DNA from: a virus
Lineage: Duplodnaviria; Heunggongvirae; Uroviricota; Caudoviricetes
Strand: one strand, 5' to 3'
IMG/VR virus record: IMGVR_UViG_3300029736_000004
Length of the DNA stretch: 64,000 nt
The notes beneath the pieces were generated by a model. The model was not told where the DNA came from. It made no database searches and saw nothing but the letters and a program-made list of their open reading frames with translations. Shown piece by piece: positions 6,680 to 53,973 of this stretch (within the stretch, counting starts at the first letter, position 1; the number at the start of each line of letters is the position of its first letter). The position numbers and the translations under genes are program-made.

Positions 6680-6742
6680 TGTTAGAAAATTAAGATTAAA
6701 ACATACTAACACAAGATTGTTAACGAAAATTATTTTTCTAAT
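6680..6742. promoter_or_regulatory. operator-like motif cluster (inverted pair plus extra half-site) upstream of capsid gene
   Basis: TGTTAGAAAATTAA at 6680-6693 with inverted partner ACTAACA at 6705-6711, plus TTTTTCTAAT at 6733-6742. Confidence 0.45.
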
Positions 6743-37514: not shown

Positions 37515-37599
37515 CAAGAATGTATGATTTATATCGTCACTAAAAAACAGCATCTGATAAAAATTCTGTTGATCTTTCTAATGTTCAGGCTTATATTCA

Positions 37600-37830
37600 T
37601 GCCGTCGTAGCAAATTCTGCGACCGGGTTTAGCAGCCTGAATGTTAGTGCGGACAACCGCAGATATCCGATATTGCGGTATTTTTGTGTCCGTAAAACCG
37701 CGTTACGCCCAAATTATGGTGGGGCGTGATGGGGAGGCTTCGGCCTGCTGGTTTCACTAACGCCAGTCTGCTAACCCCGTCACGTCCTGCCACCTGTTTA
37801 GCAGCGGGTAGCAGGTTGTTAAACCTGTTA
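37600..37830 (+). ncRNA. candidate c4-like antisense RNA / structured leader
   Basis: TTTAGCAGC at 37628 and 37798 is complementary to CTGCTAA at 37768; GAGGCTTCGGCCTGC tetraloop hairpin; lies upstream of icd-like and Rha-family genes. Confidence 0.3.
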
Positions 37831-48404: not shown

Positions 48405-48444
48405 TGCCTGAGTCTTTTTATTGAAATTGCATACTAATAAAATA

Positions 48445-48458
48445 TGTTAGAAAACTAA
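48445..48458. promoter_or_regulatory. operator-like site (TGTTAGAAAACTAA)
   Basis: 20 bp upstream of the 48479 gene; ATACTAATA variant half-site at 48431. Confidence 0.4.
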
Positions 48459-48478
48459 TTTCAAGAAAGGGAACAAAC

Positions 48479-49687
48479 ATGAGTCAGCAAGTAGAATCAT
48501 CAAGCCTGGAGATCATCTCAACCGCAATTGAAACGCTGCGGACACAAATCGCGCTTATACAGAAACGAAATCCGGGCGATGACCTGTCAAAGCGACTGCA
48601 TGAGAGCGTCATTGCCACTACAGATAACCTGGTGGCGGAAATCAACCAGCTCCTTGATGATGGGGCAGTTGATTACAATAAGCTGGTGGATCAGTTTGAG
48701 GAGTATCAGCAAGCCGTTAATGATGGCTTGATCCGTTTTTCTCAAGTCACTGGTGTATCAGCGACAGTTGAAAGCCTGGGGGATGCAGTTAATCAATTTG
48801 CCGCGAATATGCGTAATGAGATCGGCAATCTGGAGGCGCGTCTTGAGCAGGCAAATACACTGCGCAAATCTGCTGAAGTCGATTTGAGTCGTTACAAAAA
48901 AGACTATCCGCCAAGCCTGACAAAACGACTGGATGTTGCGGAGAAAGATAACCGCACGCTGAAAAGAGAGCGTCGCGAACTAAAAGAGCGTTTAACCAAG
49001 CTAAATCAGCAATGCGTTGAGTATCAAGGCGAACTCGTCACACTGCGTAAAAAGTTAGCAGCGGCGCAGAGCATTATTGAAACATTGAAACGAGAGTGCT
49101 CAGAGCTTGGTCATGATCTGAATCGCGCCTGTGGCATGGGGCAAAGGCCAGAGACATTCCCGCTAATGTATGACGGAAGAGAAGCTATTGCCTATATCCA
49201 TGAGTTTCCGCATGGTCTGGTCGCGGAGACTGGGCAACGTGGCGAAGCGTTGCTGACGGCAAATTACCATCAGCAAATCAGAACCAGCCGCCTGCTGACG
49301 ATGGATGTGATCCCGTCAGTATGGGGAACGCCGCTTTACTACCGAATTCCTGGCTTCGAAACTGACTGGAATACCGACATAGACGAATGTCTGGCAGATA
49401 AAATTATGGCGTACCTTGAAACGGATTTTCCACGCTTGCATCGCCGGATTATGGACTCTAAGGATGCACCGATCGACGAATTGAAAATGCGTCCAGAGAC
49501 GTTGGAGGCAATCAAGCAGACTGAGTTTGATACAGTGTTCAGTGTGGCCTGCATTCCAAGCAGCTTTCATGAAAGCATTCCGTTCATGCAGGGCGATCGC
49601 CGTCAGGAAATAATTGATGCTTGCCGGGTATGGGCGAACGAGTGGGATAAGAAGAACGGTGGAGTTGAAAATCTTTACGGGAAATAA
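48479..49687 (+). CDS. hypothetical coiled-coil protein
   Basis: 402 aa; N-terminal half predicted coiled coil, C-terminal globular part. Confidence 0.45.
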   Translation: MSQQVESSSLEIISTAIETLRTQIALIQKRNPGDDLSKRLHESVIATTDNLVAEINQLLDDGAVDYNKLVDQFEEYQQAVNDGLIRFSQVTGVSATVESLGDAVNQFAANMRNEIGNLEARLEQANTLRKSAEVDLSRYKKDYPPSLTKRLDVAEKDNRTLKRERRELKERLTKLNQQCVEYQGELVTLRKKLAAAQSIIETLKRECSELGHDLNRACGMGQRPETFPLMYDGREAIAYIHEFPHGLVAETGQRGEALLTANYHQQIRTSRLLTMDVIPSVWGTPLYYRIPGFETDWNTDIDECLADKIMAYLETDFPRLHRRIMDSKDAPIDELKMRPETLEAIKQTEFDTVFSVACIPSSFHESIPFMQGDRRQEIIDACRVWANEWDKKNGGVENLYGK

Positions 49688-49688
49688 T

Positions 49689-49720
49689 ATGTTAGAAAAT
49701 TAAAATTGTTTTTCTAACAT
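49689..49720. promoter_or_regulatory. operator-like perfect palindrome
   Basis: ATGTTAGAAAATTAAAATTGTTTTTCTAACAT; another site TGTTAGAAAGTAAA at 49840-49853. Confidence 0.5.
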
Positions 49721-50548
49721 ATTGATTATGGGGTTAACTTAACATAGAATTTTTCGTGCTGGTGGGGAGCTTCCCATGTCGCTTGCGGGTTTGATAGTCA
49801 CTTCATTGTCTTTCCCCACCAGCATCAAACAAATTTAAGTGTTAGAAAGTAAATTTTAAGGTAAGGGAAAGCTCCGGCACCGTGCAAATACATGCCCGGC
49901 AGGTTTAGTGCGTAAAGTGGCTTCAGCGAGAGCATTTTACGGAGTAAACGACAGTGACTTGAGCCACGGAAGGTCTTTTTATGGTGTTCATTGATGATGA
50001 TCTGGCAGTGAGTATGTTAAGTGGGCCAGGCTGCATCGGGTCATCATCAGTGCACATCCTCAACGTTAAGGAGGCGCAGAGTTGGGTTTTCCTCTTATTT
50101 TGCTGACTCTGAGTCTCCTTAACGTTGCGGTAATGCACCTATGCGGATGTGGCCTTGCATTGTGTCTTGAAAGAATGGGGTAAGGCCGGGGATATCCCCA
50201 GGGGGAGGCACCCCCGCTGCAACGAACAGCCACAGACGGCAGTCGAGTGATGGAAACGTGCAAAGACTTTAAACCTCGTTACGGCTGGCGTGGCAAACGC
50301 GACAACCGAGACAGAGCGGTGACGGGCGGAGAGAGAGCCGCTTCAAGATAAAAGCCGACTATGGATTCCTTTCTGCGGGCCTTTGAAAGTGAATCTTGCT
50401 CAGGCAGTCGGCTTTTATGTTGATACGTAGCGATAGCCGCGACAGGCGCGGCGGCAAGTATGGCGGGGTAGTGACTCCTTCCCCCTTATGACGCCGATTT
50501 GCCAGGCTGGCCATACGCCTAAGTGGCAATACCGCGAGTGGGATATTT

Positions 50549-50574
50549 GCCCACCTTCGGGTGGGTGTTTTTTC
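50549..50574 (+). terminator. rho-independent terminator inside non-coding region
   Basis: GCCCACC-TTCG-GGTGGGT followed by GTTTTTTC. Confidence 0.6.
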
Positions 50575-51034
50575 AGGGTTTTCGTCATGGTTAGCGACTT
50601 TGCGGCGGTTTAGAACCCGACCATTAAAGTAAATGCAAACGATGATCTGATGATGGTAGCGGCCTAAGAAGCCTGACGCCACGGGGTATGAGTCGTCCCC
50701 CGTCAAAAAATCGACCGCAGAGTGTCCCCGTCTGTGTATTAGGGAACGGGGAGGCATAACAGGCAAGGGCGCTGGTGTGATTAACCAGATGAATGAGAAG
50801 GGTCAGGTCTTTCTGGTCAGCGCCCTTACCTGTTACGTCCTTACCGCGTAACAGCCATTGGTTAATGGCTTTCTGGAATAATGTCTTGTAACGGGTATAT
50901 CCCGTCATGCTGAAGGCGCTAATCACGCTGGAAGCCAGGGTTATGCATCCCCTGTTACCGAATTGCAGCCAGGGCGCGGTGCGCCGAAAAGCATACGGAG
51001 GTGGAAGCCCTCGCCGGAGACGTACCCGGCAAGT

Positions 51035-51111
51035 GATGGTGTAGCTCAGTAGGATAGAGCAGCAGCCTTCTAAGCTGTCGGTCGGTGGTTCGAATCCACC
51101 CACCATCGCCA
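51035..51111 (+). tRNA. tRNA-Arg (anticodon TCT)
   Basis: Cloverleaf: acceptor GATGGTG/CACCATC, D-arm TAGCTCAGTAGGATAGAGC, anticodon loop CTTCTAA, T-arm GGTGGTTCGAATCCACC, CCA end. Confidence 0.85.
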
Positions 51112-51283: not shown

Positions 51284-51296
51284 ACACAACAGGTAA

Positions 51297-51361
51297 GGGT
51301 ATTTTGCGACATCGGAGATCGCCGAGCTTGGCAGAGGGTTCGAATCCCTACGAAGTACCCT
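51297..51361 (+). other. tRNA-like element lacking a canonical anticodon arm (possible degenerate tRNA)
   Basis: Acceptor-like GGGTATT/AGTACCC, D-arm-like GCGA...TCGC, T-arm GAGGGTTCGAATCCCTA, but only 11 nt between D and T arms; extended outer stem CACAACAGGTAAGGG/CCCTTGCCGTTGTG. Confidence 0.25.
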
Positions 51362-51471
51362 TGCCGTTGTGATGAATGCACAGGCTGATGTGCCGCAACT
51401 ACAGTAGTGCGCGCTTTGCGGGGCTTGCTACAACCCTGTGTCGGAGTTCAGCACCGACCATCACAATCACT

Positions 51472-51558: not shown

Positions 51559-51849
51559 GCGCAACGTTAAGAGTATTTGGCTAATTAAGCGAATGCCGGA
51601 AGCAGAACCGGATCACCAAATGCGTACAGGCGTCATCGCCGCCCAGTCAGCCAAATGCTCTTACCATTGCGGTGAATGCGGCTAAGCGCACGCGGAACAG
51701 TTAAAACAGTAAAGGTGGTCTTTTTACTGGCGTAACGAGCATCCATAAGTGATCCGGCGTTAATTGTTAACTGGTTAACGTCACCGGGAGGCACCCGGCA
51801 CCGCAACCTAACAGCAATGGCGTTTTGTCTTAAAAGGTGGCTGCAAGTG

Positions 51850-52063: not shown

Positions 52064-52517
52064 CATTTGGTTGTAACACGGCGTATGGCACATGCGTCGT
52101 TAGCGGTCTGGTGTAGCTGTTAGGTGCCTTACTAACACTGCATGGGCACACCAGGTAGCCGGAATGTGCAAGTCACCGTTGGAGGGATAGCGGACTCAGG
52201 GACTCACCATCCTGGCGATTCGGTGTGACAGCCGGAATAGCACGGCGTACAACAGGAAAAGGTGTTTAATTAATACGAGCGCCTTCTCCGTTGTGGTAAT
52301 TGCGGCTATGCGCTCGTGACGAAGCCATTTTCATTCACTACGTTCTGATAAGTGTCGTCGCCGGGCGTGGCTAACCTGGCAGGTGGAGGCACCACCGCCA
52401 CAACTCCTTTCAATTCATCATATAGCCGCTCAGGCTGTAACCCTTAATTAATACGAAGTTACGACGTCACTACCGGTTCAGCCGGGGGATAGTCGCGCGT
52501 GTAAAAAAGGAGACGTT

Positions 52518-53093
52518 ATGTTAACGGCGAACGATAACGCGTATTCAGAAGATGATCTCGTTTTGAGTGACTTTATAGGGCGACGAGAATGCTGGACGCA
52601 AAAGCGCGAGGAGCTTTATGCAGCGTTAGTTCGTAAAGGCGTCAACATCGAAACCGCACAGAACGGTGATATGACAGTGGTAAGTGTTGGACTGCACGGC
52701 GTAAGCGTGTCAGCAATCAATCATGAGCCGTACATTGCGTTATCCGAGTCAATGGTAAGGTTAGTTAAGTTCCTGAAGTACACAGAAGCGAATAACGTGC
52801 TCATCGCCAAAAAGAACATCCCGTTCTCATCGGCCTTTTACTGGATGATGAAGGGGCTTGATGCCCGGCGAACATCATGGCCTAAAGGGAGCTATATATC
52901 GATGCTCCGTGGCAGTGTTGGCAGCAAAGAAAAGCTCGTCGAATTCCTGCCGGAAGAGGCATTCGATATTGTTGAAGGTTGTGATGTGATGGTTATGCCT
53001 CGCCTGGTAATGATGAATGGGGATTTACAGGCACAGACAGACTGGTTTGCAACTGGTGTTGATATTATCGCTACTGACTGGGAGGTTTTTTGA
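52518..53093 (+). CDS. hypothetical protein with C-terminal W-domain (FYWMMKGLDARRTSW ... TDWEVF)
   Basis: 191 aa; GGAGAC SD; same signature as 38776, 47861 and 60733 proteins. Confidence 0.45.
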   Translation: MLTANDNAYSEDDLVLSDFIGRRECWTQKREELYAALVRKGVNIETAQNGDMTVVSVGLHGVSVSAINHEPYIALSESMVRLVKFLKYTEANNVLIAKKNIPFSSAFYWMMKGLDARRTSWPKGSYISMLRGSVGSKEKLVEFLPEEAFDIVEGCDVMVMPRLVMMNGDLQAQTDWFATGVDIIATDWEVF

Positions 53094-53580: not shown

Positions 53581-53973
53581 ATGGAGCAAATCAGTAGCGC
53601 CGAAATAGCGGATATCATGATCAGGGCTGACTGCTATCTGACGGTCACCGAAATCACCAGCCGTGCAAAAGCACAATATCCTCACCTTCATGTGTCGCGC
53701 GTAAACGTAAATAACATCATACGTTTTTTTGTTCGTTCCAGTCGTGCCATTTGCGAAATAGACGACCGCGTATACCCCCGGAAATATTGGTTACATGGCC
53801 TGAATGGATACCAGTTCAAGGTGCGCGGGCGCACTCCTGAATTCGGTCGGCTGTTGGTGAAAAACACCAACCGAAAGATAGAAGCTCAATTACGAAAGGA
53901 GCAGCGTCAGTTGGTGGCGATGACTAACCAGCTATGGAACGCCGCTGTGAAAAAACGTGAGGCTTCCCTATGA
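53581..53973 (+). CDS. putative late-gene activator (Lpa-like, by position)
   Basis: 130 aa immediately upstream of pacA with an operator-like palindrome in its promoter region; no motif-level support. Confidence 0.3.
   Translation: MEQISSAEIADIMIRADCYLTVTEITSRAKAQYPHLHVSRVNVNNIIRFFVRSSRAICEIDDRVYPRKYWLHGLNGYQFKVRGRTPEFGRLLVKNTNRKIEAQLRKEQRQLVAMTNQLWNAAVKKREASL

Follow-up and report, generated by a model that had tools for sequence, protein, structure and literature searches.

What is encoded at positions 49688–51034 of this 64,000-nt stretch of DNA (the window), whose source is a phage-plasmid related to P1 and D6? The first-pass annotation, made from the sequence alone, had read this region as a repressor-controlled, structured non-coding RNA or a cis-acting element such as a lytic origin. 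Comparison of the region with its homologues points to a plus-strand RNA composed of several modules, one of which (50577–50752) resembles the message part of transfer-messenger RNA (tmRNA, the product of ssrA) and begins with an arm that is predicted to be antisense to the tmRNA of the host. Trans-translation is the main bacterial ribosome-rescue pathway; some phages depend on it, and it serves as a drug target.

Between the gene at 48479–49687 and the tRNAs, the plus strand has no open reading frame (ORF) of at least 60 codons, the longest encoding 41–45 aa, in agreement with the first-pass annotation. Coding signals were examined in two parts of the region. In 22 distinct homologues of 49660–50440 (74–98% identity), the 298 variable columns were split 95/96/107 over the three phases, without codon periodicity, and indels of 1, 2, and 4 nt were common. 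The 37 distinct homologues of 50740–51040 contained 55 one-nt and 19 four-nt indels, and their predicted helices held 261 G–U cells versus only 15 A–C cells, which identifies the plus strand as the functional one. Because of the frame-breaking indels, the lack of three-nt periodicity, the G–U bias, and the absence of Pfam matches, we assign the region to a plus-strand RNA; at the level of sequence comparison, these data show conserved, covarying helices and no protein product. The comparison with relatives, proposed at the outset as a choice between covarying stems and conserved codons, thus came out for the stems, with no conserved reading frame, and the same indels, missing periodicity, and G–U excess bear out the earlier view of the minus-strand ORFs as artefacts.

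The folding energy of 49757–50575 was −325 kcal/mol (z −6.4) on the plus strand and −271 kcal/mol (z −5.1) on the minus strand, a difference of 54 kcal/mol in favour of the former. All three inverted repeats listed previously were recovered (49752–49768/49813–49829, 50045–50082/50106–50143, and 50343–50360/50406–50423), the start given as 49770 being about 12 nt off, and two more were found at 49978–50000/50041–50063 and 50757–50774/50818–50835. The description of the region as GC-rich holds only in relative terms (51.2% versus 48.3% for the whole window).

Two rival explanations bear on this assignment. That the region is protein-coding, through the minus-strand ORFs (135 and 180 aa; PHROG 27020) or through small plus-strand ORFs, is very improbable. 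Residues 87–154 of the 180-aa minus-strand ORF match phrog_27020 (E = 2e-46), and the minus strand of 50740–51040 is stop-free in D6-like copies; however, the 180-aa ORF crosses a tRNA gene in the antisense direction, indels of 1 and 4 nt break the frame between clades, and the open stretch of P1-type copies spans only 47–65 aa, in addition to the G–U excess of the plus-strand helices, the missing Pfam matches, and the leader without three-nt periodicity. A DNA-level element, namely a lytic origin, a packaging site, or a cruciform, would suit the many inverted repeats beside repressor operators, but is exceedingly improbable: the helices use G–U pairs, which are A–C mismatches on the other strand, the plus strand folds better by the margin given above, the modules are always oriented like the tRNAs, and P1 oriL lies in repL. 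We reject the lytic origin suggested at first, for which there is no support, as well as the protein-coding reading; the strand-asymmetric G–U pairs and the compensatory changes indicate an RNA rather than a DNA site. PHROG 27020 is probably a family of over-called ORFs in P1-like genomes, and its match in the window (68 aa, minus strand, 50705–50908) overlaps the pseudoknot PK3 and the 20-bp stem described below.

The tmRNA-like module, the most informative part of the region and one that the first-pass annotation had missed, consists of the following elements.

50577–50612, plus strand: antisense arm of three blocks and a final UUUA, with predicted complementarity to host ssrA nt 67–105
50578–50586, plus strand: block B1 of the arm, GUUUUCGUC, against ssrA nt 96–104
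50590–50599, plus strand: block B2, GUUAGCGACU, against ssrA nt 86–95
50600–50606, plus strand: block B3, UUGCGGC, against ssrA nt 74–80
50613–50634, plus strand: invariant linker GAAC.CGACCA..AAAG and frame-setting UAAAU (invariant columns of alignment A2)
50635–50667, plus strand: tmRNA-type tag frame GCA AAC GAT GAT CTG ATG ATG GTA GCG GCC TAA, encoding ANDDLMMVAA and a stop
50654–50681, plus strand: helix-5-like hairpin with the stop codon in its loop; outer helix 100% paired, its 4 pairs all changing on both sides
50682–50715, plus strand: H-type pseudoknot PK2 (S1 50682–50686/50698–50702; S2 50692–50695/50712–50715)
50716–50752, plus strand: H-type pseudoknot PK3 (S3 50716–50721/50731–50736; S4 50725–50730/50747–50752)

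A resume codon, its upstream context, and a short tag ORF were all found in the module. The context UAAAU directly before GCA is invariant, and U(−5) and A(−4) match U85 and A86 of E. coli tmRNA; these two positions have a frame-setting role in tmRNA. The tag frame occurs in 143 copies (28 distinct sequences), always as 10 codons followed by a stop, and specifies at least 18 different peptides, all of the form AN[DE]...A. Single-step changes within the frame comprised 10 synonymous and 7 non-synonymous ones, with 10 of the 17 at third positions, whereas random substitution would give 22.5% synonymous changes (binomial p about 0.009, stop-codon changes excluded).

Downstream of the tag, the stop codon lies in helix 5 and pseudoknots follow, two rather than three. 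Fully compensatory variants, taken by anchored extraction, were present in all four pseudoknot stems: CAAGG/CCUUG, CGGGG/CCCCG, and UGAGG/CCUCA in S1 of PK2; CCGA/UCGG, GUCG/CGAC, CCAG/CUGG, and CCAA/UUGG in S2; CGCACU/GGUGUG, CGCAGA/UCUGUG, and CGCAUU/GAUGUG in S3 of PK3; and 14 stem variants of 3–8 bp in S4. With 73 distinct copies in a plain MAFFT alignment, pairing across helix 5 and the pseudoknots (26 pairs) was 89.6% versus 79.4% after shuffling, the observed value being reached by none of 500 shuffles; 19 of these pairs change on both sides, and slid controls were 34–43% paired. An unconstrained pseudoknot search, in a run that had a frame bug, performed no better than shuffles.

A tRNA-like domain (7-bp acceptor stem with G3–U70, T-arm, and 3′ (A)CCA) was not found in the module. 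ARAGORN made no tmRNA call for the window or for any of 34 related loci, and the Rfam tmRNA thresholds were not reached, the best scores being 24.1 bits for tmRNA_permuted (gathering score 47) and 9.1 bits for beta_tmRNA (gathering score 84). No covarying helix corresponding to PK1 or P2 was present upstream of the tag, where the segment is instead antisense to ssrA nt 67–105. In its predicted architecture, the module is thus the message and pseudoknot part of a tmRNA without the tRNA-like domain. It lies outside the tmRNA family, for lack of the tRNA-like domain, of PK1/P2, and of a sufficient model score; its derivation from tmRNA is clear. The Rfam comparison proposed by the first-pass annotation returned only tRNAs, C4 RNA, and sub-threshold noise at the E-value and gathering thresholds.

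The module is also present in P1, P7, and D6, and 50577–50770 is 70–85% conserved in Gamaleyavirus (N4-like), Ackermannviridae, Drexlerviridae, Akiravirus, and other phages, where it is never annotated. Related copies occur in lambdoid phages, and 660 of 5426 complete E. coli genomes (12%) contain the module. The sequence 5′ of it is a terminator, a junction stem, or a promoter. In 17 of 95 distinct copies, a sigma70 promoter is so placed that the RNA would begin with the arm; in Akira-type copies, the predicted RNA start lies a few bases 5′ of the conserved GUUUUCG of the arm.

The arm, of about 36 nt, consists of three conserved blocks with variable linkers between them. Its target, ssrA nt 67–105 (UAAAAAGCCGCAA[AAAAU]AGUCGCAAAC GACGAAAAC), takes in the 3′ strand of PK1, positions −4 to −1, the resume codon, and tag codons 1–5. 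Reverse complements of the arms scored 26–42 against this target, compared with 16 ± 2 for shuffled arms (maxima 23–28); the two lowest arms (L071 and L072, score 26) reach only the shuffle maximum. In the sense orientation, likeness between the arm and the 5′ portion of ssrA stayed at noise level (scores 13–17), blastn of the whole region against ssrA gave nothing significant except the arm, and in the E. coli ssrA locus our covariance model of the module (R1), in which one helix is one column off so that its scores are slightly pessimistic, matched the minus strand only. The arm pairs with the host codons GAC GAA AAC and not with the GAU GAU CUG of its own module, and in all 73 of 73 copies the pairing was stronger with host ssrA than with the phage's own message (−34.5 versus −17.9 kcal/mol). 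A scan with the arm alone recovered 84 distinct copies, of which 81 hold the 10-codon frame, one has an N-to-K variant of it, and the remaining two match by chance, which means a strict coupling of arm and frame. In most of the Enterobacterales genera sampled (smpB-linked loci), the target does not vary, so that an extended, conserved complementarity meets a conserved host transcript. Blocks B1 and B2 presumably correspond to part of the standard anti-ssrA oligonucleotide.

How would such a module be expressed? The 5′ end of the region carries the following control elements, together with a terminator inside the region.

49665–49750, plus strand: two overlapping sigma70-like promoter candidates straddling the operator palindrome (TTGAAA-17-TATGTT at 49665–49693 and TTGATT-17-TAGAAT at 49722–49750)
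49686–49723, no strand assigned: putative bivalent operator, a perfect 14-nt inverted repeat AATATGTTAGAAAA/TTTTCTAACATATT, at the same position as P1 Op72ab
49838–49856, plus strand: third operator-like site, GTGTTAGAAAGTAAATTTT, about 90 nt 3′ of the likely transcription start
50548–50575, plus strand: intrinsic terminator, TGCCCACCTTCGGGTGGGTG followed by TTTTTT (hairpin 50548–50567), kept in P1 and D6

The palindrome arms (49686–49699 and 49710–49723) are 100% complementary, and both the perfect palindrome at the start of the region and the site near 49840 are present as first described. The operator core TGTTAGAAA occurs 12 times in the window versus 0.63 expected, a number reached in 0 of 100 shuffles, and the consensus is ATRTGTTAGAAAAYTAA. 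Promoter-like sites in our scan were not more numerous than expected from shuffles, and the promoter assignment accordingly rests on position and on the analogy with P1ban and P2ban of P1, which overlap Op72ab. With a candidate bivalent operator that overlaps a promoter and a multi-copy motif, the locus has the predicted features of a C1-repressed early operon of P1-like phages. The hairpin and T-run of the terminator previously placed at 50549–50574 are present; as the end of the region, however, it does not stand, being internal, with a further 460 nt of structured sequence before the first tRNA at 51035.

Megablast with 49600–51100 gave a D6 match with 89% of the query covered at 89% identity, whereas P1, P7, and SJ46 matched only from 50428 onward; identity to P1 between 50434 and the tRNAs was 85–89%. 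The homologous stretch of P1 lies 3′ of the C1 operator Op72ab and the promoters P1ban and P2ban, bears "dicF-like region" as its sole annotation, and continues into trnA, trnT, tciA-C, trnI, and ban; that of D6 lies, without annotation, between a pmgS-like gene and the tRNAs. The order operator/promoter, leader, and tRNAs is common to the window and P1, and by this synteny the region is the counterpart of the P1 ban-operon leader (Op72/Pban, "dicF-like region", tRNAs). The earlier reading of a non-coding, structured plus-strand RNA behind a repressor-operator/promoter arrangement is thus upheld, with homology in position to P1 Op72/Pban. The two loci have the same element order and differ in three respects: 740 nt of additional leader separate the operator from the P1-like part in the window and D6, the operator sequence of the window departs from the P1 C1 consensus, and the downstream genes are tciA-C and ban in P1 versus a Tad2-like gene and lpa in the window.

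We consider it moderately probable that the region is the non-coding leader of a C1-type-repressed early operon and that the module is a trans-acting RNA which anneals to host tmRNA and blocks or substitutes the tag; the function of the module in tagging is what we infer from its sequence. Derepression of the operator-controlled promoter would give a long rightward precursor of structured RNAs and tRNAs, which in P1-type copies must pass the internal terminator by read-through. Cleavage of this precursor at the long stems and at the tRNAs would release the tmRNA-like RNA, whose 5′ arm would anneal to host tmRNA at the unpaired beginning of its message and from there extend into PK1, masking the host tag template. 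Either tagging would be blocked, or the phage template would be offered to ribosomes entered by the host Ala-tmRNA–SmpB. In the case of substitution, an intermolecular helix would lie at the place of PK1, followed by an A-rich linker and the UA-containing resume context. The geometry of helix, linker, and resume context makes a tag swap attractive, and a swap would explain why the frame, helix 5, and the pseudoknots are conserved alongside the antisense arm. Taken this far, the module would be a natural trans-acting surrogate message for host tmRNA, with the arm on SsrA nt 67–105 and ribosomes resuming on the phage frame, which we regard as possible, if doubtful. The intermolecular helix would then replace PK1 and bury the host resume codon, and stalled proteins would receive (A)ANDDLMMVAA, or tags ending in LMAA or LAVA in other phages, rather than (A)ANDENYALAA.

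Several observations weigh against an RNA that anneals to host tmRNA. The dimer gain with full-length ssrA was −8 to −15 kcal/mol and not distinguishable from that of shuffled arms (mean −6.7, minimum −18 kcal/mol). Host–phage covariation is missing, since no phage arm re-matched to a divergent host ssrA of the Yersinia type was found; hosts with divergent ssrA are Yersinia and Sodalis, with UAAUUGCAAACGACUCGCAA, and the search for arms matched to the Yersinia type returned only host ssrA genes at prophage ends. The complementarity could be the fossil of an inverted ssrA fragment. In P1-type copies, moreover, the strong terminator at 50548–50575 lies directly 5′ of the module and the promoter scan gave no promoter-like site after it, so that expression of the module there needs read-through.

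A purely cis-acting leader, whose hairpins and terminators serve attenuation, antitermination, or processing of the tRNA/early operon and whose tmRNA-like piece is an inert, captured ssrA fossil, is unlikely in our estimation. The position between operator/promoter and operon genes, the two terminator-like hairpins inside the leader, and the resemblance of the long stems to processing sites all fit it, and fragment capture is plausible because many prophages integrate beside ssrA. The module nevertheless recurs in operons of unrelated make-up, in some cases under a promoter of its own and with no accompanying tRNAs, and an inert fossil is at odds with a 10-codon frame in 143 copies, the synonymous excess, the covarying pseudoknots, and an arm that has stayed conserved after losing its match to the tag codons of the phage itself. 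Two-piece tmRNAs occur in nature, and a self-sufficient phage version, composed of the coding piece and a phage T-arm minihelix and independent of host tmRNA, would account for the tag frame, helix 5, and the pseudoknots. T-loop tRNA-like elements do lie within 360 nt downstream in 57 of 95 distinct copies (51289–51375 in the window), but the other 38 of the 95 have none nearby, and a T-loop motif upstream, where a CCA-ending acceptor piece would be sought, occurs in only 2 of 95. Besides the lack of ARAGORN and Rfam tmRNA calls noted above, the T-arm elements are closed by their own stems and encode no CCA, one that was examined lacks G3–U70, the coding piece has no acceptor strand, and the Akira-type RNA starts at the arm. 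As this explanation also leaves an arm antisense to host ssrA unaccounted for, we judge it distinctly unlikely.

The proposed trans-acting RNA can be set beside several known systems. Like tmRNA (SsrA, RF00023), the module has a GCA resume codon after U(−5) and A(−4), a 10-codon tag of the type AND/ANE...Ala, and a stop in a helix-5-like loop followed by H-type pseudoknots; unlike tmRNA, it has no acceptor stem, T-arm, or CCA, two post-tag pseudoknots instead of three, and an arm antisense to host tmRNA in the place of PK1 and P2, and it is detected by neither Rfam nor ARAGORN. In the two-piece tmRNAs of alpha-proteobacteria, cyanobacteria, and others, coding and tRNA-like functions reside on separate base-paired RNAs, which is the likeness proposed here; both pieces there come from one gene and pair via the acceptor and P2 helices, whereas the presumed partner of the module is the complete host tmRNA, with pairing over the message start and PK1. 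The module plausibly works like a natural anti-ssrA antisense RNA and possibly like the coding piece of a split tmRNA.

Phage tmRNAs are known from mycobacteriophages of the Bxz1 group and Bacillus phage G, and DS6A has an RNA consisting only of the tRNA-like domain, which was suggested to interfere with host trans-translation (Hudson et al., 2014; PMC4131195). The exhaustive survey of ssrA in RefSeq phages in that study, P1 included, found only the mycobacteriophages and Bacillus phage G and left P1 unflagged (PMC4131195). These RNAs are likewise phage genes derived from ssrA; they keep the tRNA-like domain, whereas the module keeps only the message and pseudoknot part and adds the antisense arm. 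Oligonucleotides complementary to tmRNA suppress trans-translation in vitro (PMC3384345). Those used in ribosome display and cell-free systems are, like the arm, antisense to the start of the tag template; they are synthetic, contiguous DNA without a surrogate message, in contrast to the three blocks of the arm. The genes for DicF and other prophage small RNAs (sRNAs) or anti-sRNAs are likewise found in non-coding parts of early prophage operons, DicF being cut out of a longer transcript, but these RNAs target mRNAs or sRNAs rather than tmRNA. The literature searched yielded no published description of an RNA of this kind or of a viral RNA that pairs with tmRNA.

The module is unannotated in the reference genomes of P1, P7, and D6 and in several virulent phage families of therapy collections. 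Its likeness to the tmRNA message, joined to an arm antisense to host tmRNA, suggests that many enterobacterial phages may tamper with ribosome rescue. If tagging is indeed blocked or re-programmed, this would represent a new layer of phage–host conflict and a ready natural tool for redirecting SsrA tags. Under a tag swap, the phage would keep ribosome rescue and rewrite the fate of the tagged proteins, in effect through a tmRNA split three ways, with parts from both host and virus, a categorically new mechanism. In the related phages, structured-RNA modules that are mobile separately are strung together in long arrays, with conserved stems framing them and tRNAs in between, and such arrays fill what usually counts as intergenic space.

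Local alignments and database searches, from which the module borders were drawn, show the region as a whole to be a mosaic whose RNA modules occur in other phages independently of one another, to the extent that sequence matches define them. The remaining parts of the region are as follows.

49757–50425, plus strand: D6-lineage leader RNA with long hairpins (22 distinct homologues, 74–98% identity)
50225–50334, plus strand: mobile module "b" inside the D6-lineage leader, with the core GCTGGCGTGGCAAACGCGACA at 50284–50304
50434–50547, plus strand: module "c", most of the annotated "dicF-like region" of P1
50753–50839, plus strand: 20-bp hairpin on a recurring junction motif (ACAGGYAAGRGC... 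/ ...GCYCTTWCCTGT), 98% paired, with 2 compensatory pairs
50846–51034, plus strand: structured 3′ modules specific to the P1 group (37 distinct homologues; helices 97–100% paired)
51035–51111, plus strand: tRNA-Arg(UCU), first gene of the tRNA cluster and right-hand boundary of the region

The single RNA ending at 50574 that had been envisaged is replaced by this series of separately mobile modules, which continues through the tRNA cluster, beyond its five tRNAs, to about 52.4 kb. The leader hairpins (49757–49824, 49903–49949, 49983–50058, 50059–50129, 50151–50187, and 50344–50422, the last followed by UUUUAUGUU) have helices that are 95–100% paired, with compensatory pairs in three long stems. 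The segment 49725–50425 was found only in D6-like plasmids, pSa1423, and pEF-4, and P1 lacks it. E. fergusonii pEF-4 lacks module "b", which is found in 64 IMG/VR contigs, Klebsiella phage Kp4865-1, and a Pantoea plasmid, where it occupies a non-coding gap after a cI-like repressor. Its place 3′ of an early promoter in prophages made an HK022 put-type antiterminator RNA a candidate for this module. A small ORF in this module (34 aa, 50247–50351) was rejected on account of one-nt indels and non-synonymous first- and second-position changes.

Module "c" is common to P1/P7 and lambdoid/Stx phages and absent from D6. Its homologue in an Stx2c phage is framed by GUUGUGGU...ACCACAAC, and the sequence just 3′ of it is one that we take to resemble DicF, a neighbour that probably explains the "dicF-like" label in P1. 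The identity of that region with DicF itself was rejected, as the Rfam DicF model (RF00039) gave no match at E up to 1 or 10. Long stems on the junction motif stand between modules in all related phages and in the window lie at 50753–50839 and around 51289–51375. The hairpin at 50753–50839 is long enough for RNase III, which may cleave there. The 3′ modules form hairpins at 50891–50905, 50909–50935, 50973–50985, 50998–51012, and 51013–51030, and their homologues differ by many 1- and 4-nt indels. An 11-mer, GUGGAAGCCCU, in a hairpin loop at 51001–51011 is identical to E. coli ssrA nt 202–212 (PK3 region), a match that is not significant (E = 0.27); the related GGUGGAAGCCC is present in L022.

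The motif ATRTGTTAGAAAAYTAA also lies 5′ of the pmgS-like gene (48479), at 48443–48460, and at nine other sites, among them 6680, 36297, 37486, 47390, 57945, and 59340; together, these sites outline the predicted repressor regulon of this phage. At 37591–37797 of the window, we found a C4 antisense RNA (70 bits) with its a1/b1 target element (53.9 bits), which is the immI-type immunity region of P1-like phages.

The tRNA cluster begins with tRNA-Arg(UCU) in the window versus tRNA-Asn(GUU) in P1 (L001, 3120–3195) and D6 (L002, 3822–3897), and the window has an extra tRNA-Tyr. Directly 3′ of the RNA/tRNA array are genes for a Tad2-like (Thoeris anti-defence 2) domain protein (52518–53093) and the late-promoter activator Lpa (53581–53973), which places the array within an early operon that also holds an anti-defence gene. 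Within the array, the tRNA-like minihelix at 51289–51375 consists of a D-like hairpin (GCGACAUCGGAGAUCGC), a T-arm (GGUUCGAAUCC), and a closing stem of about 18 bp on the junction motif; neither ARAGORN nor Rfam calls it, and similar elements occur in many related phage arrays. Three further modules (51366–51468, 51650–51810, and 52270–52400) have one frame in common, GUUGUG(A/G)UGAAUGC..hairpin..variable core..CCGGAG.UCAGCACCGG..CACAAC, and a sub-threshold STnc100 match at 51668–51805 (40.8 bits, gathering score 47) overlaps one of them.

A short module, CCAGACGAUAUCUGAGUGG...GGGAGCCGGUGGAAGCCCGGC, absent from the window and without annotation, is 85–90% conserved in N4-like Gamaleyavirus, 9NA, DS8, and Klebsiella phages, with examples at 6693–6750 of L022 and downstream of 1750 in phage Bp4 (L071). 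In Bp4, the element annotated as "tRNA-Cys(ACA)" (L071, 1673–1751) directly follows the tmRNA-like module and scores below the threshold of the Rfam tRNA model; its appearance is that of a tRNA-like member of the array and not of a tRNA used in decoding.

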